Shown here piece after piece: positions 369-26,912 of a DNA stretch of 32,000 nt; position 1 is the first letter of the stretch; every line of letters begins with the position of its first letter. Where the stretch lies: positions 92,721-124,720 of the forward strand of contig CAVPBK010000005.1 in assembly GCA_963701855.1 (NCBI GenBank). The letters run 5' to 3'. The notes below the pieces were generated by a model, which saw nothing but the letters and a program-made list of their open reading frames with translations, was not told the origin of the DNA and ran no database searches. A program made the translations under genes and the position numbers. This stretch comes from Nitrospirota bacterium (lineage in GTDB: Bacteria > Nitrospirota > Nitrospiria > Nitrospirales > Nitrospiraceae).

Positions 369-376
369 GGTAAGAC

Positions 377-9470: not shown

Positions 9471-9476
9471 CGCCCT

Positions 9477-9923: not shown

Positions 9924-9995
9924 GAAAGGCGCTCCTTTTTGAGAGGTAATTGAGGGCTTCCTTCGAGTGCACAGCTCTATCATATTTCAGGTCGT

Positions 9996-10943
9996 TTAGG
10001 GCTTCCAGGGCGTCAGTGGCATCAGCGGAGCATCCTTGGCTACCGGTGTAATCGTCAGCGCGGCAATGGCTCCACGAAGGGCTCCAGTGAGCGAATGCGT
10101 CACAATCGGATAGACCCCGGGTGATTCGGAGACCAAGTCGAATGTGGCGGCGCTTCCGGGTCCTACGACATAGGTTTGTACCCCTGTGAGTTTGTTGGCA
10201 GGGTTCCCGCTCTCGTAGACGTTGTCCCAAATCTCGCCGATCGGGTGGAGCGAGGAAAACTCGTTGGGGCCCGCGTTCACAAAATAGATCCGGACCCGCT
10301 CATTCGGTTTCGCCTCTAGCGCTTCCGCGCCGATGAAGAAGGGATGATACTTGAAGATCCCTCCGTTGAAGACCGTATAGTCGAACTTCCGAGCGAACAT
10401 GGCCTCGACATCGTCGGGGTTCTTCCAGAGCTCAGATTGGACCAACAAAAACTCCCGGTCCGCTTTCGGCCAGACCTTCGGATCCTTGGGATCGACGATA
10501 ATCGCGCCGAACATGCCGCGCGCGACGTGCTGAATCATGGGTGCTGCGCCGCAATGATAGAAAAACACGCCGGGCTTCTTCGCCACAAAGGTGAAGGAAA
10601 TGGTTTCTCCCGGATTGATGGCCCGGTAGTTCTTCAGGAAATCGATTTCCGCCGCATGGAAGTCCATGGCGTGTGGAAAAACATTGGTCTTGGGATTCTC
10701 CAGCGTGAAGTTGACAGTGTCACCTTCCGTGACCCGCACGGCCGGCCCCGGCATCTGGCCGTTGAACGTCCAGGCCTTATATTTCGTTCCCGTTCCTTCA
10801 ATCACGATTTCCGTTTCGAGCGCCGTCATCTTGACGTCATGGGTCTTCGCGGATGCCTCGGAGGGCAATCCCATCAATCCGGCAATCGCAAGGGCCGTGG
10901 CCCCTGCGATGGCCATGAGTTGAGGTGATCGTCTTTTCATCAT
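9996..10943 (-). CDS. nirK: copper-containing nitrite reductase, NirK family (two-domain multicopper oxidase)
   Basis: Cu-ligand motifs HAMDFHA (type 1 His, Asp, type 2 His) and FFYHCGAAPMIQHVARGM (His-Cys...His...Met), plus a C-terminal THSL His. Signal peptide MMKRRSPQLMAIAGATALAIAGLMGLPSEASA. GAGGAG lies upstream of ATG 10943. Confidence 0.88.
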   Translation of the reverse strand: MMKRRSPQLMAIAGATALAIAGLMGLPSEASAKTHDVKMTALETEIVIEGTGTKYKAWTFNGQMPGPAVRVTEGDTVNFTLENPKTNVFPHAMDFHAAEIDFLKNYRAINPGETISFTFVAKKPGVFFYHCGAAPMIQHVARGMFGAIIVDPKDPKVWPKADREFLLVQSELWKNPDDVEAMFARKFDYTVFNGGIFKYHPFFIGAEALEAKPNERVRIYFVNAGPNEFSSLHPIGEIWDNVYESGNPANKLTGVQTYVVGPGSAATFDLVSESPGVYPIVTHSLTGALRGAIAALTITPVAKDAPLMPLTPWKP

Positions 10944-11175
10944 GGTTGGACTCCTCTCTGAAATGGTTGGGCGAACTTCTCCGGGCAAATGTGCAACTGG
11001 TCTTTTCTTATGTGAAGGGTCTCACTGGCACTTCGTCTGTATGTGAGGAAAAGAATAACAGAGCAAAATTGTCTAGTGTATATCGTAGCGTTCGGTTAAG
11101 AATCAAGCCCTTTGTTAGTCCCAAATGAGCCTGTGACCCAAAACCCGAAAAGTAGGCCAGGGGGAGCTTGAGGAA

Positions 11176-11485
11176 ATGCCCCGCGACGTGGTCTTCTTAA
11201 CTCAGAAGGAGGACCCGACGAGGGCACGACGACGAGGGTATATCGAAGAGCAGCTCCTGGCGGCCGTGCGACACGCGGAGGGCGGGACGACCGTAGTCGA
11301 GGGCTGTCGAGAGGTGGGGATCAGTGAGCAGACGTTCTCCCGCTGGAAACGAACGTACGTAGGGCTGGGGCTGAGCGAACTCCGCGAGCTCCGGCAACGC
11401 CGAGAAGAGACCACGAAACTGAAGCGGCTGGCGGCCGATCTCTCACTTGATCGGCATAGGTTGCAGGAGATGGTGCGAAAAGAGC
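11176..11485 (+). CDS. IS3-family OrfA (HTH plus leucine zipper)
   Basis: YIEEQLLAAVRHAEGGTTVVEGCREVGISEQTFSRWKRTY..LRELRQRREETTKLKRLAADLSLDRHRLQEMVRKE is the typical OrfA pattern. The track ORF 11176..12033 continues only as out-of-frame read-through. Confidence 0.65.
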
Positions 11486-12229
11486 GGTACGGCCTCGGGA
11501 CCGGCTGGCGCTGGCCCGCTGGGCGCACACGACCTACCAGGTCAGTGAGCGCCGACTCACGGTCGTGTTGCGGCGGGAGGGGGGCACGTGAATGCGAAAC
11601 GGATCTATCGGCTGTATACGGACGAAGGGCTGACGGTGCGGACGAAACACCGCACGAAGGCCGCAGGCCGAGCCCGTGTGCCGCAGGCCCGAGCCACGGC
11701 GCCGAACGAGCGGTGGAGCATGGGTTTTATGAGCGAGCGTGTGGCGAATGGCCGCTGGGTTCGGATTCTGACCGTCGTGGACCAGTTTACACGGGAGTGT
11801 CTGTGCTTGGTGGCGGATCAGTCGCTCACCGGAGAGACGGTGGCGGAGGCGGTAGAGCCGGTGGTGATGCACCGGGGCGCACCGCGTGCGCTCACCGTGG
11901 ACAACGGCAGCGAATTTTCCAGCCGCGTCATGGATGCCTGGGCCTACCGGCATGGGATCCCGCTGGATTTTATTCGACCGGGGAAGCCGGTGGCGAATGG
12001 CTTCATCGAGAGTGTCAATGGGCGGCTCCGTGATGAGGGTCTGAATGTGGACGTGTTCTTCACGCTGGACGAGGTGCAGGAGAAATTGGCGCGATGGCGG
12101 ACGGACGATAACCTCCTACGCCCGCACAGTGCGTTTCAGGATCAGGCGCCAGTCTCTTTTGCGGCGAAGTGGTTCGCCGCCCGGCCGACGGCTCCGGCCT
12201 CTTCCGAATTGCTGGAGCCACTCACGTGA
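11480..12229 (+). pseudogene. IS3-family OrfB (DDE/rve transposase), disrupted
   Basis: The -1 frame gives AVRPRDRLALARWAHTTYQVSERR, which runs directly into VVLRREGG and a stop, so about 60 aa normally between these motifs are missing. A further frame switch is needed to reach VNAKRIYRLYTDEGL. NERWSMGFM has Gly where the first catalytic Asp is expected. VDNGSEF and IESVNGRLRDE are retained. Confidence 0.7.
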
Positions 12230-12327
12230 GCGATGCGAGCGTTGTAACGCTGCATGGGCGGCTCACACCGATCACGCGCAGGCCAATTCCTCAGGGCTCG
12301 ATCGGTCTACATTCGCGGGGCGGGTCA

Positions 12328-12986
12328 GAAAGCCACAACATCGATTTTCATGCGGTCACTGGACCGGGTGGTGGAGCAGCAAGCCTCAATACCGACCAGG
12401 GGAGGAAAGTGAGTTACGATTTAAGGCCCTCAATGCTGGCCTCCATTTCTATCACTGTGCCACCGCATCGCCATCCATTCCTGAACACATTGCGAATGGA
12501 ATGTATGGCGGGATCTTAGTTGAGCCGGTTGGCGGGCTTCCCAAGGTAGACAAAGGGTTTTATGTCGTGCAGAGCGAGTTTTACACCAAGCCTGGCAAGA
12601 AGGGCGAGACCTTGGAATTTTCGTTCGAAAATGGGTTAACGGAGCACCCGTTACATGTGGTGTTTAACGGCATGGCGGGTTCGCTTATCAAGAATCTTCT
12701 GATGGCCAAGGTGGGCGACACCATTCGAATGTATTATATCAACGCAGGACCCAATCTGACCGAAAATTGGCACGTCATCGGCGAGATATTTGACAGGGCG
12801 TACCCCAAGGGTTCCTTGATTATGCCTCCATTGCAGAACGTCCAAACCACTGTCGTGCCGGCTGGTGGCTCTTCCATGGCAGAGTTTAAGATCGAGGTGC
12901 CTGGAACCTATATCAATGTGGACCACGCAATCTTCCGCATCGCAAAAGGCGCCGTTGGCCTGATAAAGGTGGAAGGTGCGGAGTAA
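12328..12986 (+). pseudogene. nirK: second NirK-type nitrite reductase, 5'-truncated at the IS3 end and frameshifted
   Basis: ESHNIDFHAVTGPGGGAASLNTD (frame of 12169..12519) continues as PGEESELRFKALNAGLHFYHCATASPSIPEHIANGMYGGILVEP... (frame of 12045..12986). A 1-nt shift is required near 12394-12398. There is no N-terminal about 100 aa and no signal peptide. The C-terminal domain is intact through VDHAIFRIAKGAVGLIKVEG. Confidence 0.8.
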
Positions 12987-13311: not shown

Positions 13312-13539
13312 ATGTTTCCCATGCAACATTTTCCCTCAAAAATGTTGCACTTGGAGTTAGTACTCAAGACCATTTTTACGTCAGGAAAACCTCACGGAAC
13401 TGGATTGGGGATGGCTATCTGCAAGAACATCATCGAGGGCCATCATGGAGATATCCATCTGACAAGCGAAGTCGGAACAGGCACCACCGTGAATATTTGG
13501 CTGCCGTTATCCCAAGATAGCCAGCTGGTGAAAGGCTAG
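13312..13539 (+). pseudogene. C-terminal tail of a histidine kinase (HATPase_c G2 box only)
   Basis: IFTSGKPHGTGLGMAICKNIIEGHHGDIHLTSEVGTGTTVNIWLPL is the last about 50 aa of an HATPase_c domain. No H-box or N-box is encoded upstream. Confidence 0.75.
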
Positions 13540-13544
13540 CCCCT

Positions 13545-14145
13545 GCAGGCATCATCTTTGTGGTTGACGAAGAGCAGGCGACCCGCTCTGCCATTACCAA
13601 ACGGCTGACTCGGCAAGGCCACCATGTGGTGGTTGGGCATGAAACCGGTGAAGCGTTGCTGGAGGGGCTTCAATACAACCTTCCTGACCTTGTGTTGCTC
13701 GATGTGAAAATTCCATTTCTTCAACGGTCTGAAGCACATGCTTTAACGCATCTAGCTGGCTCAGGAGTTCAACAAACCAATTTCTGATATTGCTCCAGCA
13801 GCGCGTGCGATACTGGAGCGATACCAATATCCCGGAAACGTTCGTGAGCTTTAGAATATTCTCGAACGGGCTTTGATATTTTGCCAGGGACGGACGCTTA
13901 AGCTCACTTGTTTGCCAAGTGAATTGTGTGAGATCTCACCGCATGTGGCAGTGGCCTCAGAAACTGTGACAGATTCGGTGGTCCGGATCGATATGAAGCT
14001 CGGACAATAGACCCTCGCTGACATTGAGCGGATGATCATCGCTGAAGTCTTGCGGCTGACGAGCTACAATAAGACGTTGGCTGCCAAGCAGCTAGGTCTC
14101 ACTCGTTTTTCGCTCGATCGACGGTTAAAGAAGGTTGCAGACTGA
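13545..14145 (+). pseudogene. relic of an NtrC-type sigma54-dependent response regulator lacking the AAA+ core
   Basis: The REC N-terminus (IIFVVDEEQATRSAITKRLTRQGHHVVVGHETGEALLEGLQYNLPDLVLLDVKIP) shifts frame to FNGLKHML*RI*. It then jumps to the extreme C-terminus of the AAA+ domain and the HTH (ISDIAPAARAILERYQYPGNVREL*NILERA...TLADIERMIIAEVL...NKTLAAKQLGLTRFSLDRRLKK). There are four in-frame stops, no ATG, and about 250 aa missing. Confidence 0.8.
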
Positions 14146-14398: not shown

Positions 14399-14446
14399 AT
14401 AAAAAAGCCGATCCGCCGGCCCGTCTCACGACGGCGGCGGATCGGC
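14399..14446 (-). terminator. strong rho-independent terminator of the amoCAB operon
   Basis: On the minus strand, 24 nt after the amoB stop: gccgatccgccg / cggcggatcggc, a perfect 12-bp stem extended by an inner 5-bp ccgtc/gacgg stem, followed by TTTTTTAT. Confidence 0.85.
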
Positions 14447-14469: not shown

Positions 14470-15735
14470 TTAGCTTGCTGAGGCCCTCGTGAAGACCGGG
14501 ATGATGTTACCAGCAATACTGTTGATGTGGCGATTGCCGGATTCGTCCCAAGCCATGATGAGACCTCCGAAGCGCTGATCAGGATCGTGGACCAGGTCCA
14601 TAAGTCTCTGTATTTCCCAGAGCGAGTCTCTCGAGTCGAGCTTGACCTCTTTGCTTTCGCCCGGGTTGATTGGTGACTCATCCTCGATATGCAAGCCGTC
14701 TGTTGCCATAATCTCCGCTGGGTAGTCCGGGTCCATGTTGTTGGCTACGCCAACCTTGTTGAGGAACCGGATACCTGCTGTTGTGAACTCTCCAATCCTG
14801 AGTGGCTGTTCACCGCTGTTGGTCACCTGCAGGGTCATGCGCAGGGCGCGACCAGGAACATCGTAATCTGCGGCGAGCACCTTTACCGTAAGATCCGACT
14901 TCAAATGAGTCGCCTTGATCTTTGGTTCACCCGCCTGGAGCGGGATGGTATACGGATACTGACTGTCCGTAACGAAGAAACCAATGGCAATCAAAACAAA
15001 GACCACTCCTAGCATCCCAAAGGCCACTACGCGATCAACTGGATCGTTCAACAGTGCGTCTCCACCCTCTTGGGCCAACACACGCGCACGAATGAGGAAC
15101 ATTGGTCTGATCATGAACCAGCCGATCCAGGCAAATCCAAGCCCACCCCATAACAAATGCCAGAAGAGCCCGGCCGCTAGGCCTGCGGTTTCTGTATCGA
15201 TGGTTCCTCCAACCAACAGCTTTGCTGGGTTGGTGAAATCTTTATAATTGCCTGTGATATCCATCCAGCCTCCAGGTCCGGCGATAGGCCCGGCCCCATT
15301 GACTGCCAACATCGGGTGGATGTGGTGGTGGCCAGGTAACCGGCCCCTCAGTTTAATCACGTATTCGTAGTCCCCACCGATCTCCACCGGGCCCGAGGTG
15401 AACATCGGAACCCCGTTCACTTTCGAGCTGAGACGTGTGAACACCGAACTTGGGCTCCCCACGTTGATGAACGTACGATTGGGCTTGACGACGGCCCGAG
15501 GCCAGTCTTCCGATATGTGCAACTTCCCCGACAACATCGCTTCATCGTTGACGGCGGTTTTCGACGGATTCCACCTTGTGTCGTACCATTGAGCGGTACG
15601 CATCCGCAGGAACGGTTCCTGAGAGCGCTCCCCGTGGGCGGCAGCGGGTGAGGCATTGAACACCAGGGTGAGCCCCAGCGTCGCCATCCCGAGGGAGCCA
15701 ATCACGCACAATTTGAATATGTTTTTAGCGTTCAT
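14470..15735 (-). CDS. amoB: ammonia monooxygenase subunit B
   Basis: Signal peptide ending AAA, then HGERSQEPFLRMRTAQWYDTRWN (the AmoB/PmoB hallmark with an N-terminal His). GHHHIHPM supplies the H-x-H copper ligands. Two internal TM helices and a C-terminal cupredoxin-like domain are present. Confidence 0.95.
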   Translation of the reverse strand: MNAKNIFKLCVIGSLGMATLGLTLVFNASPAAAHGERSQEPFLRMRTAQWYDTRWNPSKTAVNDEAMLSGKLHISEDWPRAVVKPNRTFINVGSPSSVFTRLSSKVNGVPMFTSGPVEIGGDYEYVIKLRGRLPGHHHIHPMLAVNGAGPIAGPGGWMDITGNYKDFTNPAKLLVGGTIDTETAGLAAGLFWHLLWGGLGFAWIGWFMIRPMFLIRARVLAQEGGDALLNDPVDRVVAFGMLGVVFVLIAIGFFVTDSQYPYTIPLQAGEPKIKATHLKSDLTVKVLAADYDVPGRALRMTLQVTNSGEQPLRIGEFTTAGIRFLNKVGVANNMDPDYPAEIMATDGLHIEDESPINPGESKEVKLDSRDSLWEIQRLMDLVHDPDQRFGGLIMAWDESGNRHINSIAGNIIPVFTRASAS

Positions 15736-16625
15736 GATTTCCCTTCCGCTAATGTAGCTCCGCCCGACAATCTAGGTGCAACTCCATCCGGCGTACCATG
15801 TCTCGCTGCATACTCATCTGTACCGACGATCATGATGTCGTTCTTCCGTGACATAACGCCACGTCTACCCTTAACCCAAAAGAATGCTTGCCCGACAAAG
15901 TGCCCCACTTGCCACCAAATGGTGAACATCAACATGGAGATGAAGGCCGAGAAGAACGCGGAAATCCAGACGGTGTGGCCGCCAAACGTACGCAGCGATC
16001 CCACCTCGATGATCCGGATATATTCAGGTGTCCCCGTACGGACATAGGTGAATCCCATGTAGTCTGCCAGAGATAGCAGCTGACCATCCACCACCATCGG
16101 TTGATGGCTGTACCCGAATAGGGCATAGTTTGTCGGATTAAACATCATCGCGAACGCCCATACCCCGAATATCGCTGTGAGCATCCAACTCCGAGTCAGC
16201 AACAGGGTACAGTCGAGGATCAGCGCACTGGAGACCATGGTGGCCGGCATGACGAAGTTTGCCGGAAAGTTGGCCCACCAGTACCAGGCAAACAGAACCG
16301 TGATCCATTTCCCGACAAGGAGCCCCGTGATGCTCAACGTGGCACCAAACGGTTGCCGATAGAATGTCCAGAAGTAGTACATGATCGCTCCGGGATACAT
16401 GACCTCTACAATTGGTGTGACCGTCACCCAAAACTGCCGGTCCTTCCAATCGATCCAGAAATCCCAGTCTCCTGCAAGCAGGTCGAAGTGCATATGAAAG
16501 GTTGCGAACACCCCTAAATACGCAATCGGAAGAAAATACACCGCGTCTATCATTCTTGACAGCTTGACGCCTTCCGGCGGAAGCTTGCTGGCTTTGATAA
16601 TCTCAGCGGTTCTAAACAGTGCCAT
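15732..16625 (-). CDS. amoA: ammonia monooxygenase subunit A
   Basis: MALFRTAEIIKASKLPPEGVKLSRMIDAVYF..HMHFDLLAGDWDFWIDWKDRQFW..YVRTGTPEYIRIIE..RTFGGHTVW closely parallels the Nitrosomonas AmoA sequence as I recall it. A 4-nt ATGA overlap links it to amoB. Confidence 0.95.
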   Translation of the reverse strand: MALFRTAEIIKASKLPPEGVKLSRMIDAVYFLPIAYLGVFATFHMHFDLLAGDWDFWIDWKDRQFWVTVTPIVEVMYPGAIMYYFWTFYRQPFGATLSITGLLVGKWITVLFAWYWWANFPANFVMPATMVSSALILDCTLLLTRSWMLTAIFGVWAFAMMFNPTNYALFGYSHQPMVVDGQLLSLADYMGFTYVRTGTPEYIRIIEVGSLRTFGGHTVWISAFFSAFISMLMFTIWWQVGHFVGQAFFWVKGRRGVMSRKNDIMIVGTDEYAARHGTPDGVAPRLSGGATLAEGKS

Positions 16626-16678
16626 TTGTCCCCTCCTCGCTCGTTCTGAACATCTGTTCCCTCCCTAAATTTCCAACT

Positions 16679-16729
16679 GGCTGGGCGGCCCCGCTCTTTC
16701 CGGCATCCGGAGTACGGGGCCAGCCCGCC
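16679..16729 (-). promoter_or_regulatory. GC-rich compound stem-loop in the amoC-amoA intercistronic spacer
   Basis: ggctgggcggccccg (16679-16693) pairs with cggggccagcccgcc (16715-16729) at 12 of 15 positions. It encloses an inner tccgg-cat-ccgga hairpin. No U-tract follows. A GAGGAGG RBS for amoA lies downstream. Confidence 0.5.
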
Positions 16730-16746
16730 AAAGTCGACGGCACGAC

Positions 16747-17544
16747 TTAGTACGGGATCACGTGCAAGCAGTCCTTGCTCTCGTTGTTCCAGACCACATC
16801 GCACAGGTTCGACATGCGCGCGACGATCTGCGCCGCGACGCCGCCCGTGCCCCCGAACAATCCGCACCAGCCCAGAGTCACAAAGCCCCAGTGCAATGGC
16901 GCCGCAAAGAGTTCATCGACGAACCAGAACGCATGCCCCCACTCATTGAGGCCCACGTTGGGAAGAATCATCATCGGCCCCACGATCGCCCCCACCAAGG
17001 GGAACGACACCGCCTTGCTGAACTGCGGCAGCCGGGTCATGGCATACAGATAGCTCGCCACGCCACAGGTGATGTACAACGGGAAGGTGAAGTAGAAGGC
17101 AATGATATGGCTGGCCGTGAAGCTGGTGTCGCGGATGATCACCTGGTGCCACGACGCATCCTGCTCCAAAGTGTACGAACCCGCCCAGTACACGCCGAAC
17201 ACGTATACCGCAAGCCACATCATCCAATAGAAGTACCGCTTGAGCTCGGTCTTGGGATCCACGTTGGCAATGTTGCGATCCCGGGTACTCCATATCCACC
17301 CAAGGGTGGAGGCCGAGAAGATGATGTTGGAAATCACGTTAAAGCGCCACAGCCCCATCCAGACATTTTCGAACTCCGGCGTCATGGAGTCCAAGCCGTG
17401 GGAATACCCAAAGACGCGCTGAAAGACGACCTCGGCCCCTACCGCCGCCAACATCGTAAACCAGCCGATCTTGAGGGGCCGGGAATCGTACCAGAGCGAC
17501 ATGTCGTAGCCCCGATCCGCCCCTCCCCATGTTGTACTAGCCAT
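16747..17544 (-). CDS. amoC: ammonia monooxygenase subunit C
   Basis: [40 protein letters not shown], a six-TM pattern and [20 protein letters not shown] are AmoC/PmoC hallmarks. AAGGAGG lies 6 nt upstream of the ATG. Confidence 0.95.
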
Positions 17545-17650
17545 ACACTGACCTCCTTGTTAAGTGATTGAGACCCACCGCTTACTTCCAGAGAAAAATT
17601 CTCCGGCGAAACATTGATACTGGTTGCTGCCGTTAGATCTGCGTGGCGGG

Positions 17651-17680
17651 AGATTAGCGGATACAGTTTCTTGATGTCAA
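17651..17680 (-). promoter_or_regulatory. candidate sigma70-type promoter for amoC
   Basis: The minus strand reads TTGACA (17680-17675), an 18-nt spacer, then TAATCT (17656-17651), about 105 nt upstream of the amoC ATG. The -35 sits inside the palindrome cttgacatcaag. Pattern match only. Confidence 0.3.
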
Positions 17681-17733
17681 GTAGAATATCCAAGGTGGAA
17701 GCCTTGTCTCGCCTGCAAAATGCGTGCAACGAT

Positions 17734-18733
17734 CTATGCACTTAACTCCAGTTTATCGCCTACTATTTATGAGGTGGCTGCAGTCAGCCTCGAGTAGGGG
17801 ATAGGCTCAATCGCGACGGTTTGTGCGACAAGTTTGTAGAACAGTTTCCAGCGGTATCTCGACGTTCGACGATTGAACCGAAATGTGAATTCGTCGAGAT
17901 AGGAGTCCAGTTGCTCACGGGACAATGCACCTTTATGGGTACCCATTAACCAACGTTTCAATAAGGAAGACACCTGGTGCACGCGGGGTAGCAAAGCCGA
18001 CGTTATTTTGCCGCTGGTGTTGATCAGACGCGGTTGGTGCTTGAAGCCTTCCTGCTTCAAGCCCGCATAGGCCTTCCATCCATCTGTAACGACCACGGAA
18101 CCAGGCTCGACAGCGTATTTCACGAAGGCGACGAGCGAGCTCGGAGAGGCAGAGGGAATCCGTCGCAGGCAGATGCGTCCAATCCCCTTCCCGTCGACCT
18201 GTGCCGCGATCGCCACCAGGGCCTTGCTTCCCATGTGCCGACGGCTTCGTCCAGCCTCGACGCCCACCACATATGTTTCGTCCACTTCAATCTGGCCTCC
18301 CAGGCTGTCCCAGCCAGGCCGCACTACTGCGCGTCGCAGTTTCTGCAGCCACAACCACGCCGTCCTGTAACTGCCAAAGCCCAGTAGGCGCTGTAGCCCC
18401 AAGGCGCTGAGCCTATGTTTCTGATCGGTCATCCACCACATGGCTCGGAACCAGTCCTGCAGAGGAAGGCGGGTTCGATGAAAGATCGTTCCAGCCGTTA
18501 CTGAGGCTTGGTATCCACACCGGCGGCACATCAAAAGGCATCGTGTGGTTGTCCAACTGCCGCTGGTCATGCATTGGGGGCAACAGAACCCGGTCGGCCA
18601 CCGCAGCCTGGCCAGATAGGCACGGCAGGCACCTTCTGTAGCGAAGCGCTGTTCGAACTCGGAAAGGGTTCGCATATAGTCCTCCACGGTATAACTCCAG
18701 CACGTCTGGCGCGAACTGGAGTTAAGTGCATAG
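17734..18733 (-). mobile_element. intact IS1595-family insertion sequence (1000 bp)
   Basis: Perfect 20-bp terminal inverted repeats: ctatgcacttaactccagtt at 17734-17753, and its exact reverse complement at 18714-18733. A single transposase ORF fills the interior. Flanking octamers gcaacgat and cctaattc differ, so no target duplication is visible. Confidence 0.9.
17767..18687 (-). CDS. IS1595-family transposase (N-terminal zinc ribbon + DDE domain)
   Basis: CPQC..x..CRRCGYQASVTAGTIFHRTRLPLQDWF (Zn_Tnp_IS1595), then EVDETYVVG, ALVAIAAQVDGKGIGRI and VVTDGWKAYAGL (DDE_Tnp_IS1595). GGAGG lies upstream of the ATG. Confidence 0.9.
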   Translation of the reverse strand: MEDYMRTLSEFEQRFATEGACRAYLARLRWPTGFCCPQCMTSGSWTTTRCLLMCRRCGYQASVTAGTIFHRTRLPLQDWFRAMWWMTDQKHRLSALGLQRLLGFGSYRTAWLWLQKLRRAVVRPGWDSLGGQIEVDETYVVGVEAGRSRRHMGSKALVAIAAQVDGKGIGRICLRRIPSASPSSLVAFVKYAVEPGSVVVTDGWKAYAGLKQEGFKHQPRLINTSGKITSALLPRVHQVSSLLKRWLMGTHKGALSREQLDSYLDEFTFRFNRRTSRYRWKLFYKLVAQTVAIEPIPYSRLTAATS

Positions 18734-19071
18734 CCTAATTCGCATGCAAAAAAATATACAAAGTTGTATTAAAAATCAAGCTTACTGGGAGATCTATGCG
18801 CCAAGCAATATCCGTGCCGGCTTGGCCATGAACGATCAGTCACGCTTTCTCAATCCTGTGCCCACCGTACCATACTGGACGTAACTGACTCATCCGATTG
18901 TTCGCGTGTATTCACGAGTGGCGCTGCGAACCACGACTTCAAGGACCACGGTCACATGGGTCTGACACGCTCGGGTTGTCGGGAGCACAGCCTCCATTCC
19001 ACTTCCTGATAATGACTGTTGAAAATCTAGCTGCGCAATCCACGCCACACCCCGTTACTTCCACACGAAGC

Positions 19072-21093
19072 TCAGTGCACATGGTCGTCTGGTGGCGGAC
19101 GGAGTTCCTTTTCCCGATTGAGTTGTTCGATCTGCCGCGTCAGTTCGCCGATGTCTGTCCACCCCGCCCCGTCCGCGTTAGGAATCCAGCGCGCTCGCAA
19201 ATAACCGTAACGATCTATGAGGAACTCCATGTGCTTGGGTGATGTTCCCTCACCAGCCAGATCAGGGTTGCTGAGAGTCCTACGGAATAGAGCATAGCTG
19301 CGTGCGATCTCTGGCGCTCCTTGTGTCGCCACTGGAAAAGGCATGTCTGCTGTGATCGTCGCCAGGTCTTCTGGGTTGAGATCATTCACTGGTGCCGCCA
19401 AAATCACCGTATTGGCGGCGCTTAGTGTGGCATAAGCCAGCCGCAGCTGATCGAGCCTCGCGCGTGACTCCGGCCACGAAAACAGGACTAGCAGTACCGC
19501 TTTCTGCCGACGGAAGTCCTTCAAGGTACCGCTCGTACCGTCATGCGCGGAGTAGGAGAAATTCTGCGGGGCCATGTAGGGCTGATTGGGAGCGACGTAG
19601 GGATTAATGAGGCGAGCTTGATAGCCGCGGGATGTGGCATGGAGAAAGTTCACGACATCCCAACGATCCTCTTCCGAGAGTTTGTCCGCAAATGCCGGCA
19701 TGCCGGTACCGGGAATACCATGGGTCAGCCAGTGGAAAAAGTCTCCAGCAGTGTGCTTGGCCGTGTGCGGTTCTGTGAGCAGATCCACCGGTGGTATAGC
19801 GAAGGTCTTGGCCAGAACGCCATTGCCCTTGGCTTGGGGTCCGTGGCAGAGCACGCAATTCGTGGCAAATATGGTCGCACCGTTGGCAACGGAAATGGCG
19901 TCGAACGGGACCGGTGTCTTGCGGTAGGTTTCCGGAAAAGCTTGAGTGGCAAGGGGAGGCAGCGCCGCAACCAGTGCACAGAGTGCCAGTAGGGCTGGGA
20001 TGGCAATGCGCCACTTCGTTTCCCAGAGCTTGGTTCGACCGAGGACAACTGCCCCGCCTGCCAGGGTAAGCAGTGCGATTCCGACCCCCCCGCCGATCAT
20101 TACGCCCAACCCGCCCCAAGTGGCGTCGATGGAGAAGCGGAATGGATAGGGCCAGTCCTCAATGACGGCATGTTTCGCCGGCACGGCGTTGGCTAGCATT
20201 GTCGCCACCAATACCAGTACCAACGCGATTACGAATTCGATGGTGACCCACTTTCGAAGTCCCTGTTTGCCGACTGCAGCCACGTCCGTGTTCTGGTCGA
20301 GTGACGGAATCCAGATGCGGCGCGCACACGCGCCGATCACGAGAATCGGCGCGAGCAACGCAAGCTTTGTATTGAGAAACCAGCCCCAGCTCGTTGCGAC
20401 CAATGCGGCGTAGCTCGTGTCCACCATGTCATTCGCAACGATGATGCCGGTGCCCACGACAGCGACCATCACAGGAAGCGCTATTGCAGAGAATCGCTTC
20501 ATGGTCTGGATGTCGAACCGATCCACTTCCTCGTGTGATCGTTTCCCGACGGTGGCGAACATTATTGAGAGAATAGCCGGCAGCCCTCCGAGCCAGACGC
20601 TTGCCAGAACAATATGCAGCGCGTAAGGCAGCACCGATATCACGGATAGTTCTCCGGCTGCGGAATGGCTTGCGAGCGATCCTGCAGCCAGCGTGAGTGC
20701 AGCGACGGTCGCGCACAGCACATACCGCCAGCGTGCCCAAGGTGAGAAGCGAATGTAGAGAGCCATTCCGAGCACGAGCAGCGCAAGGGCCGCGCGCGCC
20801 GTCCAGATGAGTCCTATGCGGGTTTTTTGTAAGAGTTCTAGCCAGGCTCCCGGGTGCCAAGCATTTTCAGCCAAGCCCGTAGCCTGCGCGGTAGTCGTGG
20901 CCAGCAAGCCTAGTAACCCCAGCAGAAGCGTGGCCGAAAGCCACGGTAACGCCCGTTCCAGACGGGCTAGCCATGGGCTGTCGAGTGCGGTTTTCGCATG
21001 CACCGCAATTGCAAGAAAAACGCAACTGCCGATCAGGATCATGTTGGACGCAAGCTGCAGCCAGCGGAGCAGCGCGCCGATGACCTCGATCAT
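19072..21093 (-). CDS. copD: CopD-family copper membrane protein fused to a class I cytochrome c domain and a C-terminal thioredoxin-like domain
   Basis: The N-terminal about 300 aa are polytopic and CopD-like, followed by two further TM helices. Then comes NCVLCHGPQAKGNG (CxxCH) with a distal GTGMPAF Met. The AhpC/TSA-like fold KAVLLVLFSWPESRARL has no CxxC. Confidence 0.85.
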   Translation of the reverse strand: MIEVIGALLRWLQLASNMILIGSCVFLAIAVHAKTALDSPWLARLERALPWLSATLLLGLLGLLATTTAQATGLAENAWHPGAWLELLQKTRIGLIWTARAALALLVLGMALYIRFSPWARWRYVLCATVAALTLAAGSLASHSAAGELSVISVLPYALHIVLASVWLGGLPAILSIMFATVGKRSHEEVDRFDIQTMKRFSAIALPVMVAVVGTGIIVANDMVDTSYAALVATSWGWFLNTKLALLAPILVIGACARRIWIPSLDQNTDVAAVGKQGLRKWVTIEFVIALVLVLVATMLANAVPAKHAVIEDWPYPFRFSIDATWGGLGVMIGGGVGIALLTLAGGAVVLGRTKLWETKWRIAIPALLALCALVAALPPLATQAFPETYRKTPVPFDAISVANGATIFATNCVLCHGPQAKGNGVLAKTFAIPPVDLLTEPHTAKHTAGDFFHWLTHGIPGTGMPAFADKLSEEDRWDVVNFLHATSRGYQARLINPYVAPNQPYMAPQNFSYSAHDGTSGTLKDFRRQKAVLLVLFSWPESRARLDQLRLAYATLSAANTVILAAPVNDLNPEDLATITADMPFPVATQGAPEIARSYALFRRTLSNPDLAGEGTSPKHMEFLIDRYGYLRARWIPNADGAGWTDIGELTRQIEQLNREKELRPPPDDHVH

Positions 21094-21494
21094 TTCTTTT
21101 GCACTTTGCCCTTTACCGTGAAGTCGAAGGACGACTCCACCACGTGACCGTCTACCGACAGTACTCGAAACTTTACTGAATACTTTCCGGGCGTCAACTC
21201 CGGCAATGGGAGAACGATGGACTTTGGGTCATCTGGAGTAAGTTGAGGCTTGATCTCGGTAACGGGATGTTTCTCGGCGTCGAGTACAACAAGCGACGCG
21301 TACTCGCCTTCGAGTTCCTCGTTGAACCAGAGTCGCACCTGCGCCGGCGCCTTGGCGAGGACAGCCCGGCGTGGCGGCTCTGCCTTGACCAGCATTGAAT
21401 GCGCCAGCGCTGGGGCGGCATGCGCGCCCATCGCCATCAGCATCGCTACTCCTATCATGACGCGCTTGAGTGCATGAACCGCCCATGATTCCAT
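21090..21494 (-). CDS. copC: CopC-family periplasmic copper chaperone
   Basis: Signal peptide ending ALA, then HSMLVKAEPPRRAVL (mature N-terminal His), and VLSVDGHVVESSFDFTV. The start is chosen at Met59 of the track ORF (GGAGAGGGGGAG RBS). ATGA overlap with copD. Confidence 0.85.
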   Translation of the reverse strand: MESWAVHALKRVMIGVAMLMAMGAHAAPALAHSMLVKAEPPRRAVLAKAPAQVRLWFNEELEGEYASLVVLDAEKHPVTEIKPQLTPDDPKSIVLPLPELTPGKYSVKFRVLSVDGHVVESSFDFTVKGKVQKK

Positions 21495-21588
21495 TGGATC
21501 TCCCCCTCTCCTTGACTGCTGCGTTCGAGTAAAGCAGCCGGTCTTTTGCACGCCTCGGTTCGGCGTACTGCTCTCAGTGACTGGCTGC

Positions 21589-22176
21589 CTAAGAAGCGGT
21601 GCGAACCGACGGCTTGCGACGACTGCGCAGGAAAAAGAATATCGCCGCTCCACCGGCAATCGCTGCAAGCGGGACTATGACCATGATGTAGTGCATGAAG
21701 TGCGAAACCACTCCCGATTCTCCTACCGAGATCGGGAATCGCGCGATATGTTCCTCCTTGCCGCCAACGGTGACTACACCGATGAAATTGCCTGGCTGGG
21801 TGAAGTTATATTCGAAATTAATGAACCCCCCAGGGTAGACCTTGGCCGGCAGGTGAAGGACCGTGTTGGCCTGAAGATCCTGTTCCGAACCCGTATCCTT
21901 GATGACCCGGACCTCGACGGGCAACGAGCGGAGTTCCCCTTCTATATAATCGAGCACCAACACCGTGCGTCCGATCGACGGAACATCCCCGCAGAGTTCC
22001 CTCGAGGCTGAGGTATCAGGTTGATATTCTGTAAGATGCATGCCGTAGGGTCCGAGCTTGAGTATGCAGAAGTTTTTGTCCAATTCGTGAAAGTGCTGGG
22101 CCTGTGCGGAGAGCGGAGCTCCGATCGCCAATATCAAGAAGCACACGCAAGCAGGTTTGAGAAATTGCAAAGACAT
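21589..22176 (-). CDS. AmoD/AmoE (PmoD)-like secreted, C-terminally membrane-anchored protein, copy 1
   Basis: Signal peptide, a beta-rich domain of about 130 aa with FCILKLGPYGMHLTEYQP (C-x8-M-H), and a C-terminal TM helix. Position upstream of copCD. The start is chosen at MSLQFLK (GAGGA 8 nt upstream). Confidence 0.7.
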   Translation of the reverse strand: MSLQFLKPACVCFLILAIGAPLSAQAQHFHELDKNFCILKLGPYGMHLTEYQPDTSASRELCGDVPSIGRTVLVLDYIEGELRSLPVEVRVIKDTGSEQDLQANTVLHLPAKVYPGGFINFEYNFTQPGNFIGVVTVGGKEEHIARFPISVGESGVVSHFMHYIMVIVPLAAIAGGAAIFFFLRSRRKPSVRTAS

Positions 22177-22269
22177 CGTCAGTATCCTCATCATTATCAT
22201 CTTTTAGACAGCTCAATTTTCTCGTTGAACCAGAGTTGCAACTGCTCATTGGACCGGATGGCCGGTCGC

Positions 22270-22848
22270 TTACGAAACGGTATTGCTCGACGTTGTGCCA
22301 CGCCCGCGCAGGGCAAAGAAGATCACTCCGATAACGGCAACCCCTGCGAGCGCAATCAAGAAGTAGGTAGGGGGTAACCATATTTTTGTTTCCCCTACCG
22401 AGAACGGAAATCGCGATACATGTTTATCACCTACGGTGACCAGACCAACGAATTTGCCAGGCTGGTCAAAGTTATATTCGAAATTAACCGAGCCGGCAGG
22501 GTAGACCTTGGGCGGTAGGTGAAGAATCGTGATGGCCTGAAGGTCTTGCTCCGACCCCGTATCCTTGATGATCCGAACCTCGGTGGGCAACGGGCGCAGT
22601 GCATCTTCCATATAATCGAGCACCACGACTGTACGGCCCGTCGCGGGAATGTCCTCACAGAATTCCTTATTGCGGGTGTTGTCTGGCTGATAGCCGGTAA
22701 AGTGCATGTTGTACGGGCCGATCGTGAGTCTGCACATGTCCTCGGCCAGTGCCAATCCTCCGTGAGCCTGGGCCTGTGTGGAGAATATAACCCCCATCGC
22801 CAGCATCAAGAAGCACAAGCCAGCAGATTTCACCAATTGCACAGCCAT
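22270..22848 (-). CDS. AmoD/AmoE (PmoD)-like secreted, membrane-anchored protein, copy 2
   Basis: Same architecture, with MCRLTIGPYNMHFTGYQP. In the core block, 53 of 71 residues are identical to copy 1 (counted by eye). The leader gggaggatactgacaATG is nearly identical to that of copy 1 (gaggatactgacgATG). Confidence 0.7.
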   Translation of the reverse strand: MAVQLVKSAGLCFLMLAMGVIFSTQAQAHGGLALAEDMCRLTIGPYNMHFTGYQPDNTRNKEFCEDIPATGRTVVVLDYMEDALRPLPTEVRIIKDTGSEQDLQAITILHLPPKVYPAGSVNFEYNFDQPGKFVGLVTVGDKHVSRFPFSVGETKIWLPPTYFLIALAGVAVIGVIFFALRGRGTTSSNTVS

Positions 22849-22901
22849 TGTCAGTATCCTCCCTCTCGAATGTTGAACCATGTGCTCGCGGGCCGGAGCG
22901 C

Positions 22902-23495
22902 CTAGTTTCCCGTACGGCGGACTGCCCACCAATTCCGCAGCCATTTCGATCGTATGAGTATGTATCCAATGAATGCAACTACCAGCACTCCTATCGCCGG
23001 TCCTGTCATGGTACGTATAAGCTTCTGGTAGTCGATCATGTGTACCCGCAAGAGATACTGCGGGTGCTTCATGAGATTCTGCTTCTCCGCCGAAATAGTT
23101 ACCGTATACAGGCCCTCATCCAATCTGACTTCGCCTCTGAGCACTCCGTCCGGGTGAGTGCTTGGGCGAAAATCTGCCACAATCTGATCTTCTGTCGCAT
23201 TGTTCCCATTGCCCTTCATAATCCGCATACCGATAGGCTCGCTGCGTAACGCCGGGTCCACGAGGTCTACGACTAGGAAGGTGTCGCCTTCCTTGGGAAT
23301 GTCTGTGCAGTATTGACCCTTCAGCTCGTATTGAGGCTGGTAGGCGCTGAAATGCACCATGCGCTCACCTACTCGGCGCAAGCATGGGTCGTCTTCTCCG
23401 CTCGTTGTTCCATGTGCAGAAGCGACTCCAGGATGGTCCAGTGCGGCAAGAAGAATGAGCACCATAAGGCCTGCTCTTGTCACTTGCCTAATCAT
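22902..23495 (-). CDS. AmoD/AmoE (PmoD)-like secreted, membrane-anchored protein, copy 3 (divergent)
   Basis: Signal peptide ..GVASA then HGTTSGEDDPCLRRVGERMVHFSAYQP (C-x7-M-x-H) and a C-terminal TM helix GPAIGVLVVAFIGYILI. AGGAGGA RBS. Confidence 0.65.
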   Translation of the reverse strand: MIRQVTRAGLMVLILLAALDHPGVASAHGTTSGEDDPCLRRVGERMVHFSAYQPQYELKGQYCTDIPKEGDTFLVVDLVDPALRSEPIGMRIMKGNGNNATEDQIVADFRPSTHPDGVLRGEVRLDEGLYTVTISAEKQNLMKHPQYLLRVHMIDYQKLIRTMTGPAIGVLVVAFIGYILIRSKWLRNWWAVRRTGN

Positions 23496-24009: not shown

Positions 24010-24190
24010 GAGGCCTCCAATTGCCATATAGCGACATCAATCTTGTGGATGGGTTTGCGTTTCAGCGACAGCTGGATCTCTGTATGCGACGTCAGGCAGG
24101 GTCGAGAAAGTACTCACGAGCAGCACGACCCATGAAGATCCGATGCTGTGGCAATTTTGTTTCTTCGGCCCCAGTAGGATTTCCCTGAAT

Positions 24191-24811
24191 ATGTTCCAAA
24201 CCGTCGCACTGAGCGGCAGTCGCGGAGAACGACAGCTGTTCTCCGGCGTCAGCGTGACGGTCAAGCCAGGAACGCTATTGGCTGTGACCGGTGAAAACGG
24301 CAGTGGGAAGACCAGCTTTCTCCGCATGCTGTGCGGTCTGTTATCTCCTGATGGAGGTACGATCCTTTGGCAGGGGAAAGACATCCGCCAACTTAAGGAA
24401 CTCTATAGCGCCCAGCTTACCTATGTAGGGCATCTCAATGGAATTAAGGACGAACTAACCCCGGTCGAAAACCTCAAAGTCTCAGCTTCCCTGGCCGGCG
24501 ATAAAAATTCCGGCGCAGTCGTGCAACAGGCATTGGAGGCCGTCGGTCTTGAACCGCGAGTTCATCGTCTGTCGACGAGGGTGCTGTCGCAAGGACAAAA
24601 ACGCCGCGTGGCATTGGCTCGTCTCTGGCTTTCCACACGTCCGTTATGGCTCTTGGATGAGCCGTTCGCTTCACTCGATACTGCAGCCACCAATTACTTA
24701 ACCCAACGCTTGCAAGCGCATCTGAGTCATGGCGGCATGGTGGTCGTCGCTACGCACCAGGATATCGCTCTCCCAAGTGATTCCATCCAGCACCTGAGGC
24801 TGACTCGATGA
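24191..24811 (+). CDS. ccmA: haem exporter ATP-binding protein CcmA
   Basis: Walker A GENGSGKTS, ABC signature LSQGQKRRVALA, Walker B LWLLDEP. The start is chosen at MFQTVALSG (Met17 of track ORF 24143). Confidence 0.9.
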   Translation: MFQTVALSGSRGERQLFSGVSVTVKPGTLLAVTGENGSGKTSFLRMLCGLLSPDGGTILWQGKDIRQLKELYSAQLTYVGHLNGIKDELTPVENLKVSASLAGDKNSGAVVQQALEAVGLEPRVHRLSTRVLSQGQKRRVALARLWLSTRPLWLLDEPFASLDTAATNYLTQRLQAHLSHGGMVVVATHQDIALPSDSIQHLRLTR

Positions 24812-25491
24812 GTCAGCCCAGCATGAGTGCGGCGTTGCGCGGAGTTGTCCGGCGGGATTTTCTGCTGGCCATGCGGCACCGTTCGGATGTGGCGATGTCG
24901 GTTTTCTTCGTCGTCATCGTCGCTAGCCTCTTCCCTTTGGGAGTTGGGCCGGAGCAGGCGGTTTTGAGGGTGATCGCCTCCGGTGTGCTCTGGGTCACGG
25001 CCCTGCTTGCGTGCCTGTTGTCACTGGGGCGTCTGTTTACCGCTGATTATCTCGATGGGGTGCTGGAACAGACGCTTTTGGTACCTCAGCCTCTGGCTGT
25101 CCTGGTCGTTGGCAAGGTATTCGCGCATTGGGTAATCTCCGGTTTGCCAGTCGTTCTGCTCTCGCCTCTCCTCGGTTTGCAGTTCGGCCTGAGTGGAGAC
25201 TCGCTGGTGGTGTTGACGTTATCGCTCTTGCTTGGTACGCCGACGTTGAGTATGATTGGAGCCATCGGTGCTGCGCTGACTCTTGGATTGCGGGGGAGCG
25301 GTTTACTCGTTGCCCTCCTAGTGCTTCCTCTCTTTATTCCGGTACTGATCTTTGGGGCTGGCGCCGTTACGAATAGTTTGGCCGGAATCGGCAGCGAAGC
25401 GAATCTGTCGTTACTTGGAGCCTGTTTCATGCTGTCACTCGTTTTTGCGCCCTGGGCCACGGCTGTTGCATTACGCATTGCGTTGGAATAA
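24808..25491 (+). CDS. ccmB: haem exporter permease CcmB
   Basis: Six-TM protein of CcmB length and position. 4-nt overlap with ccmA. Confidence 0.88.
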   Translation: MSQPSMSAALRGVVRRDFLLAMRHRSDVAMSVFFVVIVASLFPLGVGPEQAVLRVIASGVLWVTALLACLLSLGRLFTADYLDGVLEQTLLVPQPLAVLVVGKVFAHWVISGLPVVLLSPLLGLQFGLSGDSLVVLTLSLLLGTPTLSMIGAIGAALTLGLRGSGLLVALLVLPLFIPVLIFGAGAVTNSLAGIGSEANLSLLGACFMLSLVFAPWATAVALRIALE

Positions 25492-25503
25492 GACAATTAC
25501 GAG

Positions 25504-26265
25504 ATGAGCGCCACCGGCATTAACTGGTTCAAGTATTCCTCGCCGCAGGCCTTTCACCCTTTGGCCGGGCGGCTGATTCCGTGGTTCGCCGCGGCGGCGC
25601 TTGGATTGAGCGGTGTCGGCCTATACATGGGGTTTTTCGTGGCACCGACCGACGCGACACAAGGTGATGCGTATCGCATTATCTTCGTCCATGTGCCGGC
25701 CGCCTGGATGTCCATGTTCCTCTACGTCATGATGGCCGTGTGGGCCGGGATCGGACTGGGATTGAATGCACGCCCGTCGTTCATGATGGCGCAAGCCATC
25801 GCCCCCACCGGGGCGATGTTTACGTTTTTGGCGCTGCTCACCGGGTCGATGTGGGGAAAACCGACCTGGGGGGCCTGGTGGGTGTGGGATGCCCGGCTGA
25901 CGTCGGAACTGATTCTGCTGTTTCAATATATTGGGATCATCTTGCTTCGGTCGTCGATTGATGATCTACGCCGTGCTGATCGCGCGAGTGCCGTGTTGGC
26001 ACTGGTAGGAGTGGTCAATGTCCCAATCATCTATTTTTCTGTGCGCTGGTGGAACACGTTGCACCAGGGGGCGTCTGTCAGCATCACCGCGGCGCCGAGC
26101 ATGGCCGGGAGCATGGTGACGGCCATGCTCGTGATGACGCTCGCGTTTTGGATGTACAGCTTCGTTGTGACGCTAGCCCGCATGCGGTGCGTGATTGTCG
26201 AGCGGGAGCGACAACCTTCGTGGGGCAAGCCGGCCGCGATCCCAGACGTTGCGGAGGCGCGCTGA
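25504..26265 (+). CDS. ccmC: haem exporter/haem lyase subunit CcmC
   Basis: WWD motif WGAWWVWDARLTSE and conserved flanking His residues. Confidence 0.92.
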   Translation: MSATGINWFKYSSPQAFHPLAGRLIPWFAAAALGLSGVGLYMGFFVAPTDATQGDAYRIIFVHVPAAWMSMFLYVMMAVWAGIGLGLNARPSFMMAQAIAPTGAMFTFLALLTGSMWGKPTWGAWWVWDARLTSELILLFQYIGIILLRSSIDDLRRADRASAVLALVGVVNVPIIYFSVRWWNTLHQGASVSITAAPSMAGSMVTAMLVMTLAFWMYSFVVTLARMRCVIVERERQPSWGKPAAIPDVAEAR

Positions 26266-26420
26266 TGCAGTGGGGAAGTCTGGCAGAGTTTGTCGCGATG
26301 GGCGGGTACGGTCTCTACGTGTGGGTCTCATTCGGGGCCACGGCCCTGTGTATGGGGGGAGAAGTCCTCGCGGTGTGGCGGCGGTCTGTCGCCGCAGCGG
26401 CGAGTCGTGACGAGTTGTAG
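26265..26420 (+). CDS. ccmD: haem exporter protein CcmD
   Basis: MQWGSLAEFVAMGGYGLYVWVSFG is the typical CcmD single-TM peptide. Its ATG shares 1 nt with the ccmC TGA. It is hidden inside the longer track ORF 26049..26420. Confidence 0.8.
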   Translation: MQWGSLAEFVAMGGYGLYVWVSFGATALCMGGEVLAVWRRSVAAAASRDEL

Positions 26421-26435
26421 GAGGAAACTGAGACG

Positions 26436-26903
26436 ATGACACCTCGACGGAAACGGTTTGTTCTCATCGGGCTGGGACTGATTGCCTTGGCCGTGGCGTC
26501 GGCCCTCGTGTTGAATGCGTTCCAAAGCAACCTGGTATTCTTCTATACGCCAACGCAGGCGGCCAATGGGGACGTGCCCCAGGGGCGCAGCTTCCGTATC
26601 GGCGGGATGGTTGAAGCCGGCAGCCTCACCCGCGAAGGCGATGGCCTCACTGTGCATTTTGTTGTGACCGATATGGCGAAGCGTGTGCCTGTGACGTTCA
26701 AAGGGATACTCCCAGATCTCTTCAAGGAAGGGAAGGGAGTAGTAGCCCAGGGTCAACTCGGTGCTAATGGGGCATTTCTGGCAAGTGAAGTGCTAGCGAA
26801 GCATGATGAAAACTATATGCCACCAGAAGCCGCGGATGCGCTCGCCAAGGCCAAGACCGTAGGGGTGCAGAGCAGCGGCACCTTGGTCGTCAATCCACGG
26901 TAG
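26436..26903 (+). CDS. ccmE: cytochrome c-type biogenesis haem chaperone CcmE
   Basis: N-terminal anchor, [28 protein letters not shown] and the haem-binding [10 protein letters not shown]. Confidence 0.92.
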
Positions 26904-26912
26904 GGAGCCTAC

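Follow-up and report, generated by a model that had tools for sequence, protein, structure and literature searches.

An ammonia monooxygenase locus assigned to comammox Nitrospira clade B and the IS1595-family element in its amoC leader

Which organism carries an ammonia monooxygenase (AMO) gene cluster in which the accessory genes precede amoC, and how is an insertion element of the IS1595 family between copD and amoC to be understood? Both questions are raised by a 32,000-nt stretch of the Nitrospirota contig CAVPBK010000005.1 (GCA_963701855.1), which is called the window here and the numbering of which is used for all coordinates. The genes were identified with a list of open reading frames (ORFs) and with Pfam and NCBIfam profile searches of the window. 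We assign the window, with a probability of about 95%, to the ammonia-oxidation locus of a complete-ammonia-oxidising (comammox) Nitrospira with an amoA of clade B. An earlier reading of the DNA letters, referred to as the sequence-only reading, had already proposed a complete-ammonia-oxidising Nitrospira. This proposal was borne out by AmoA identity, the AmoA tree, the transketolase matches and the gene order, and it could be narrowed to clade B.

The ammonia monooxygenase and its phylogenetic placement

On the minus strand, the order of the genes is amoE, amoD1, amoD2, copC, copD, the IS1595-family element, amoC, amoA and amoB. The three subunits of the enzyme are encoded as follows.

16747-17544, minus strand: amoC, 265 aa; Pfam E=1.6e-105; AmoC_BACT 342 bits (cut-off 319)
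15732-16625, minus strand: amoA, 297 aa; Pfam E=3.5e-92; AmoA_BACT 312 bits (cut-off 290)
14470-15735, minus strand: amoB, 421 aa with a signal peptide; Pfam Monooxygenase_B E=4e-146; AmoB_BACT 523 bits (cut-off 336)

The genes are adjacent and co-oriented, and each of the three proteins exceeds the NCBI curated equivalog cut-off for bacterial AMO. For all three subunits, the closest solved structures are the bacterial AMOs 9LEG, 9PXF and 9CL6, with E-values from 1e-107 to 1e-162. The ligand list published for 9LEG (PMC12804982) was applied to the printed alignments. The CuB site of AmoB turned out to be complete (H34, H138 and H140, which align to H38, H142 and H144 of 9LEG), and the same was true for the CuC site of AmoC (D129, H133 and H146, aligned to D136, H140 and H153, plus D139) and for its CuD site (N200, H204 and H218, aligned to N207, H211 and H225, plus E211). 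With the profile cut-offs passed and the copper ligands retained, the co-oriented minus-strand genes with hallmark motifs that had been recognized earlier were confirmed. The stop codon of amoA and the start codon of amoB share 4 nt, and a ribosome-binding site, AAGGAGG, is found at 17552-17558 ahead of amoC. The AMO gene set is complete, accompanied by copper-handling and cytochrome-maturation genes, and apparently functional. From what is known about the family, AmoCAB would be a copper membrane monooxygenase that oxidises ammonia to hydroxylamine (NH3 -> NH2OH) at the CuC/CuD centre.

The AmoA protein was compared with species-representative genomes. The best matches were all Nitrospira assemblies, and those labelled as clade B in the literature (CG24A, CG24C, CG24E, RSF3 and 'Rifle_cladeB') were 85-99% identical. 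The identity was 57-61% to clade A, 59% to Nitrosovibrio and below 50% to the methanotroph-type PmoA and PxmA. In a neighbour-joining tree calculated for 40 sequences with 100 bootstrap replicates, the AmoA of the window fell inside the clade B group (bootstrap 91%), as the sister of a Danish assembly (100%), and was separated from clade A, betaproteobacterial AmoA and PmoA. The flanking genes gave the same picture. Among the top 120 matches of the transketolase encoded by tkt, every named one belonged to Nitrospira, Nitrospiraceae or Nitrospirota, and Nitrospira contigs, the largest of them 2.87 Mb long, align colinearly with the tkt, malQ, nirK, amo and ccm regions. Over the locus, the DNA of the window is 97-98% identical to that of two public assemblies. 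AmoA therefore falls outside the Nitrosomonas/Nitrosospira and PmoA clades, and the flanking genes are not proteobacterial; tkt and malQ are assigned to Nitrospira by the named transketolase matches and by the synteny with the large contigs.

The gene order was compared by tblastn of the window proteins onto fetched loci. Nine independent clade B genome loci have the divergent ccm genes followed by amoE, amoD, amoD2, copC, copD, IS1595, amoC, amoA and amoB. Clade A loci have the identical order minus the insertion element, with a copD-amoC spacer of 365-372 bp. In Nitrosovibrio, the order is amoA, amoB, amoE, amoD, copC and copD, and this betaproteobacterial arrangement is not found in the window. 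The sequence-only reading had stated both facts correctly, namely that the accessory genes follow amoB in betaproteobacteria and that they come first in comammox Nitrospira, where the order was found in both clades. An 'amoBAC, copDC' arrangement has been described together with a duplicated amoD, with AMO, HAO and ccm genes in one region and with an additional CcmI in clade B (bioRxiv 10.1101/138586), and the comammox arrangement has been echoed since (PMC6852473, PMC12903955). As the gene order and the co-location with ccm were published for comammox in 2017-2019, the main finding was already known; it names the organism and the pathway of the window, and clade B amo loci of this order near ccm have been described since 2017.

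The ccm genes lie head-to-head with the amo cluster.

24143-31550, plus strand: ccmABCDEFGHI, System I cytochrome c maturation, complete, divergent from amoE
about 26268-26420: ccmD, a small ORF
29886-31550, plus strand: CcmI, 554 aa, with two Ig_CycH stretches
from about 31782, plus strand: ORF that continues beyond the window end; its product has a signal peptide and CcmI/CycH-like C-terminal sequence

The last of these ORFs fits the CcmI duplication that was reported as unique to clade B. The ccm operon had been described as back-to-back with the amo block; it does adjoin the block, but the two are arranged head-to-head, about 650 bp apart. The divergent ccmA-I operon would mature the c-type cytochromes of the HAO pathway and possibly also the cytochrome domain of CopD.

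Other origins of the locus have to be weighed against this assignment. The AmoA, AmoB, CopC, CopD, AmoD and AmoE proteins have Nitrosovibrio homologues with identities of 55-68%, which might point to a rearranged operon in one of the betaproteobacterial ammonia oxidisers (Nitrosomonas or Nitrosospira), although these values fit the known shared ancestry of the genes. However, AmoA is 59% identical to Nitrosovibrio compared to 85-99% for Nitrospira clade B, the two are separated in the tree, tkt and malQ are Nitrospira-like, and the gene order differs; the probability of a betaproteobacterial origin is close to nil. A clade A locus, or a methanotroph-type pMMO or pXMO, is very improbable. It is true that the order amoE-D-D2-copCD-amoCAB is common to clade A and that all Pfam domains are common to the CuMMO families. 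Nevertheless, clade A AmoA branches separately and reaches an identity of only 57-61%, the PmoA and PxmA relatives stay below 50%, the NCBIfam equivalogs for bacterial AMO were passed, and the second CcmI-like gene is of the clade B type. A chimeric or mis-binned contig, in which Nitrospira housekeeping genes had been joined to foreign amo genes, would have to be considered because short-read assemblies typically break inside amoC, so that joins at this site are error-prone. But the order tkt-nirK-amoBAC-IS-copDC-amoDDE-ccm recurs in the data of different projects, on independent contigs that reach 2.87 Mb, which leaves a chimera a negligible chance.

Four points weigh against the assignment to a comammox Nitrospira or restrict it. 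The 32-kb window does not include HAO, cycAB or NXR genes, and we therefore infer complete nitrification from clade membership; the 'core nitrification island' of the sequence-only reading stands as an ammonia-oxidation locus, but not with respect to hao/cycAB and nxr. A look-up with CcmI towards hao beyond the window end gave no match, and one with CcmE gave short contigs only. The tree was calculated by neighbour joining on a modest reference set and not by maximum likelihood. The NirK-like protein scores 214 bits with TIGR02376, which is below the cut-off of 296 bits. Lastly, a consensus scan for sigma-70 promoters and terminators yielded site counts that do not exceed chance in the region, and the promoter proposals made below are therefore based on conservation and not on the scan.

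The IS1595-family element upstream of amoC

The sequence-only reading had overlooked an element of 1000 bp between copD and amoC, which interrupts the block. The element and the sequences around it are the following.

18753-18779, minus strand: P1, sigma-70-like promoter sequence, TTGATT-N15-TATATT, noted for its conservation in clade B
17734-18733, minus strand: IS1595-family element, ISSod11-like, 1000 bp, with the transposase ORF 17767-18675 (302 aa)
17714-17729, minus strand: candidate motif TTGCACGCATTTTGCA, which adjoins the right inverted repeat, noted for its conservation
17651-17680, minus strand: P2, promoter-like block TTGACATCAAGAAACTGTATCCGCTAATCT upstream of amoC, noted for its conservation

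The transposase reaches 181 bits with the NCBIfam family transpos_IS1595 (cut-off 75) and matches the Pfam families DDE_Tnp_IS1595 and Zn_ribbon_IS1595. For its ORF, 18687 is given as an alternative boundary to 18675, and the zinc ribbon is N-terminal. Members of the ISSod11 subgroup of IS1595 in the ISfinder classification are about 1 kb long, generate an 8-bp target duplication and have a D-D-H-K motif. This motif is kept in the window, with two catalytic Asp residues, a His that is aligned to the catalytic Glu of distant relatives, and a Lys seven residues further on. The element is bounded by perfect terminal inverted repeats of 20 nt at 18714-18733 and 17734-17753, for which no match was obtained in 100 shuffles. 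A target-site duplication is not present, as the 8-nt flanks (gcaacgat and cctaattc) differ, and a displaced, imperfect direct repeat of 12 nt is the only repeat in the flanks of the element.

Of the 14 clade B genome loci that extend far enough upstream, 9 have the element at this site. A metagenome scan with the transposase retrieved 80 loci, and when these were pooled with the genome loci, 56 carried a close relative (at least 65% identity). amoC follows the element in all 45 close-relative contigs that continue for about 450 nt or more past it, and copD precedes it in 37 of these; the 45 relatives are at least 70% identical. The 21 distant transposase relatives (at most 58% identity) have no amo context and lie in other surroundings. 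One exact transposase protein is present on 15 contigs from different samples, and the 10 listed places appear to share a single context, with CopD or CopC-CopD upstream in 5 of these 10; the remaining contigs are too short or have no Pfam calls. The contigs stop shortly past the element. Mobility, that is, copies at varied sites, was not seen among the close relatives on contigs with enough downstream sequence. Selection was estimated by the pairwise Nei-Gojobori method. The ratio of nonsynonymous to synonymous substitutions (dN/dS) of the transposase was 0.15 at a dS of 0.64, and the neighbouring genes had similar ratios (copD 0.17, amoE 0.19, amoD 0.15-0.20) at comparable dS. The transposase is thus under purifying selection.

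The conservation of alignment columns was calculated over 46 clade B units.

amoC-proximal inverted repeat: 97.8%
distal inverted repeat: 90.9%
TTGACATCAAGAAACTGTATCCGCTAATCT block (P2): 94.7%
transposase codon positions 1, 2 and 3: 92.7%, 95.3% and 81.0%
unconstrained spacers: 55-61%

The conservation of the proximal inverted repeat and of the sigma-54-like motif beside it exceeds that of the first and second codon positions of the transposase. About 20 nt separate P1, which reads TTGACA-N16-TATATT in relatives, from the left inverted repeat downstream of it. P1 is conserved across the clade B units, including solitary units of the element and amoC, and is homologous to a clade A sequence; the P2 block has a homologue in clade A as well. 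When the element was removed in silico, the clade B copD-amoC spacer aligned colinearly with that of clade A and showed both P1 and P2, and the element therefore lies between the two. Their sequences suggest that P1 and P2 may act as promoters. Transcription of amoCAB most likely starts in the conserved region 100-190 nt upstream of amoC and would end at the hairpin after amoB.

The motif TTGCACGCATTTTGCA, which is nearly invariant in 46 relatives, directly follows the proximal repeat and agrees with the sigma-54 consensus TGGCACG-N4-TTGCW in its spacing and in all positions except -25. Sigma-54-dependent regulators are encoded in the vicinity. Both half-sites are invariant, the spacer is variable, and a TTGCA/TGCAA palindrome is formed in some relatives. 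In the window, sigma-54 matches with at most one mismatch occur only at 17714-17729 and 18804-18819, both on the minus strand in the copD-amoC spacer. The latter is poorly conserved, so that only the match beside the right repeat is a conserved one. The number of matches is not above chance, with at least two in 10 of 100 shuffles, and a promoter role of TTGCACGCATTTTGCA is therefore put forward as a hypothesis. In eight loci, a second, tandem copy of the amoC-proximal repeat is found 46-56 nt downstream of the right repeat.

On four contigs, the element and amoC are followed by unrelated genes instead of amoA. The neighbours of such solitary units include dnaE and genes for a haem peroxidase, a tRNA-editing protein and a pseudouridine synthase. 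Some of the solitary units have no copD upstream, ten further loci having been included for this context, and a sub-clade of the element lacks an upstream copD. The solitary units are homologous to the window from a point about 70 nt before the distal repeat onwards, and P1 lies within the homologous part. A composite transposon carrying amoC was considered and rejected, because a third copy of the inverted repeat is found neither in the window nor in the solitary units downstream of amoC, and because the duplicated unit begins about 70 nt upstream of the left repeat and not at the repeat. Short-read contigs usually end about 230-340 nt past the element, at the start of amoC, which is consistent with repeated amoC copies. 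The simplest reading is that one ancestral insertion into the amoC leader was later copied along with amoC. The IS1595-family element would thus have entered the leader between two ancestral promoter-like sequences in the clade B ancestor and would have been inherited together with amoC since then.

Transposases next to amoCAB have been taken as signs of lateral transfer (PMC6852473, PMC12903955), and the perfect inverted repeats and intact catalytic residues are what would be expected of a young element. On this view, the element would have been inserted recently and in a single strain, where it would split the amo cluster, might impair it and would signal recent horizontal transfer. This was rejected on the basis of the site conservation, with 9 of 14 clade B genome loci carrying the element at this position and amoC next to the element in 45 of 45 testable contigs, and of the dS of 0.64, which equals that of the neighbouring genes. 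In addition, the dN/dS is 0.15, the target-site duplication is gone, and amoCAB retains its own conserved upstream region. We regard a recent insertion as improbable. Instead of a casual insertion or a scar left by horizontal transfer, the ancestral element may have been domesticated and retained by clade B comammox Nitrospira because it serves the host in a role linked to amoC. We propose this tentatively as the preferred explanation for the intact transposase and repeats, at a probability well below even. It is suggested because the element sits between ancestral promoter-like sequences and accompanies amoC in every context including the solitary copies, and because the transposase has a dN/dS of 0.15 at a dS of 0.64 and the proximal repeat (97.8%) and the sigma-54-like motif are highly conserved. 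The transposase could bind the inverted repeats as a DNA-binding regulator of amoC or amoCAB, or it could mediate changes of the amoC copy number.

A conserved association of IS1595 and amoC was not found in the searchable literature, which contains only passing mentions of 'a transposase' near amoCAB. The pairing is the only part of the results that a specialist might find new. It explains the breaks at amoC in short-read assemblies of these genomes, represents a marker specific for clade B and calls into question the usual reading of transposases adjacent to amoCAB as recent lateral transfer. Should the control of amoC indeed have become a role of the transposase, a key operon of the nitrogen cycle would contain a domesticated bacterial transposase, which would be a rarity.

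Copper-handling genes and the surroundings of the cluster

The accessory genes upstream of the element and the features downstream of amoB are the following.

22902-23495, minus strand: amoE, orf4-type PmoD-family protein, 197 aa; 6CPD E=9e-7
22270-22944, minus strand: amoD1, PmoD-family; 6CPD E=2.9e-23; likely true start 22848
21589-22200, minus strand: amoD2, PmoD-family paralogue; 6CPD E=1.5e-20
21090-21668, minus strand: copC, periplasmic copper-binding protein, Pfam CopC E=1.4e-21; probable true start near 21494
19072-21093, minus strand: copD, 673 aa; Pfam CopD, Cytochrom_C and a weak AhpC-TSA match
14405-14422, minus strand: terminator-like GC-rich hairpin with a T-run, 48 nt past the amoB stop codon, from the consensus scan only
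9996-10988, minus strand: NirK-like copper nitrite reductase, likely start 10943; TIGR02376 E=3.5e-63
9477-9983, minus strand: truncated haemoglobin, Pfam Bac_globin, follows nirK

The three AmoD/E-like genes, copC and copD had been predicted on the same strand upstream of amoC, and all of them are present at or near the positions given earlier. In the profile searches, the three PmoD-like ORFs had neither Pfam nor NCBIfam matches, and all three proteins match the solved PmoD domain 6CPD with the E-values listed. They have hydrophobic N- and C-termini, and AmoE has a signal peptide and a C-terminal membrane helix. In pairwise BLASTP comparisons, AmoD1 and AmoD2 are 54-60% identical to each other, and AmoE is 24-29% identical to both. 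The best match of AmoE is the first gene after amoB in Nitrosovibrio (55%), AmoD1 is 68% identical to the second gene after amoB, and AmoD2 has no counterpart in the Nitrosovibrio locus. Because the outermost ORF matches the Nitrosovibrio amoE and the next one matches amoD, the order is given as amoE-amoD1-amoD2-copC-copD. The start of amoD1 at 22848 would remove the overlap with amoE, and the signal peptide of CopC begins at M59 of the called ORF. CopD is a fusion of a CopD domain, a cytochrome c domain and a thioredoxin/AhpC-like domain, and this full-length architecture is also found in Nitrosovibrio (62%) and clade A (63-64%).

Two extra subunits of the 9LEG enzyme have been named 'AmoD' and 'AmoE' (PMC12804982). 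The three PmoD-like proteins matched none of the 9LEG chains in the PDB search, in which only PmoD (6CPD) was matched, and they are therefore not equated with these subunits. The names AmoD and AmoE may thus denote different proteins here and in the structural study. From family knowledge, the PmoD-type periplasmic copper proteins encoded by amoE, amoD1 and amoD2 and the copper-import pair CopC/CopD would supply or handle the copper of the enzyme and probably deliver it to AMO.

That nirK is close to the amo block was correct in so far as the gene is present, but it is located 3.5 kb beyond amoB, and gene debris lies between the two. The debris consists of what is left of an IS3-family element, a second nirK paralogue that is truncated at its 5' end and the remains of a two-component system.

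13312-14145, plus strand: short in-frame pieces of the C-terminal part of a histidine kinase, of a response-regulator receiver domain and of a Fis-type helix-turn-helix
12045-12986, plus strand: artificial ORF, of which only the last 198 residues are NirK-like
11176-12033, plus strand: IS3-family OrfA remnant, which abuts the truncated nirK ORF

At the place of the two-component remnants, two other clade B loci have an intact kinase and a sigma-54-dependent regulator, convergent with amoB. The second nirK is full-length (about 335 aa) in three relatives. A 98%-identical assembly is without the 1.7-kb stretch of IS3 remnant and truncated nirK (11176-12986). A second, intact pair of kinase and sigma-54 regulator is found at 966-3574.

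After nirK, the minus strand at 8820-9983 encodes the truncated haemoglobin and a protein of 205 aa that has no family match, and the order of this trio of nirK, globin and hypothetical gene is kept in several clade B loci. At the window start (6-778, plus strand), a DpnII/MboI-type restriction endonuclease gene is truncated by the border of the window, so that only its C-terminal part is included, and a gene for a small Lrp/AsnC-type regulator comes next. An Rfam scan of the whole window for RNA families gave no match.

Comparison with known systems

The solved betaproteobacterial AMOs (9LEG, 9PXF and 9CL6) resemble the enzyme of the window in that the copper ligands are all identical. Nitrosovibrio sp. 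Nv6 has homologues throughout, including the fusion of CopD, cytochrome c and a thioredoxin-like domain, which is 62% identical over 673 aa. In contrast to the window, its accessory genes follow amoB, it has a single amoD, and it belongs to a different phylum. A ccm operon was not detected in the Nitrosovibrio locus within about 10 kb downstream of amoA; upstream, this locus includes only about 560 bp and no amoC.

The element shares with the ISSod11 subgroup its length of 1000 bp, the single ORF, the zinc ribbon, the IS1595-type DDE domain, the terminal inverted repeats of 20 nt and the His at the third catalytic position. It differs from the subgroup in having no target duplication, in having been seen only upstream of amoC and in diverging in step with the locus, under purifying selection.

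The clade A loci of the Ca. N. nitrificans type have the same gene order on one strand as the window and homologous P1 and P2 sequences, whereas their AmoA is 57-61% and their AmoC 75-77% identical, and no element is present between copD and amoC.

The clade B genomes CG24A, CG24C and CG24E (Palomo et al. 2017/2018) and RCB (Poghosyan et al. 2019) are closest, with AmoA proteins that are 89-95% identical to that of the window. Adjacent System I ccm genes and a second CcmI-like gene are present, as has been reported for clade B. Downstream of amoB, the window differs from other clade B loci in that the two-component system is mostly lost and a truncated second nirK is present. CG24A and RCB have a different region upstream of amoCAB, without an insertion element there, whereas CG24C has the same arrangement as the window, with ccm, amoE-amoD-amoD2-copC-copD, IS1595 and amoCAB.

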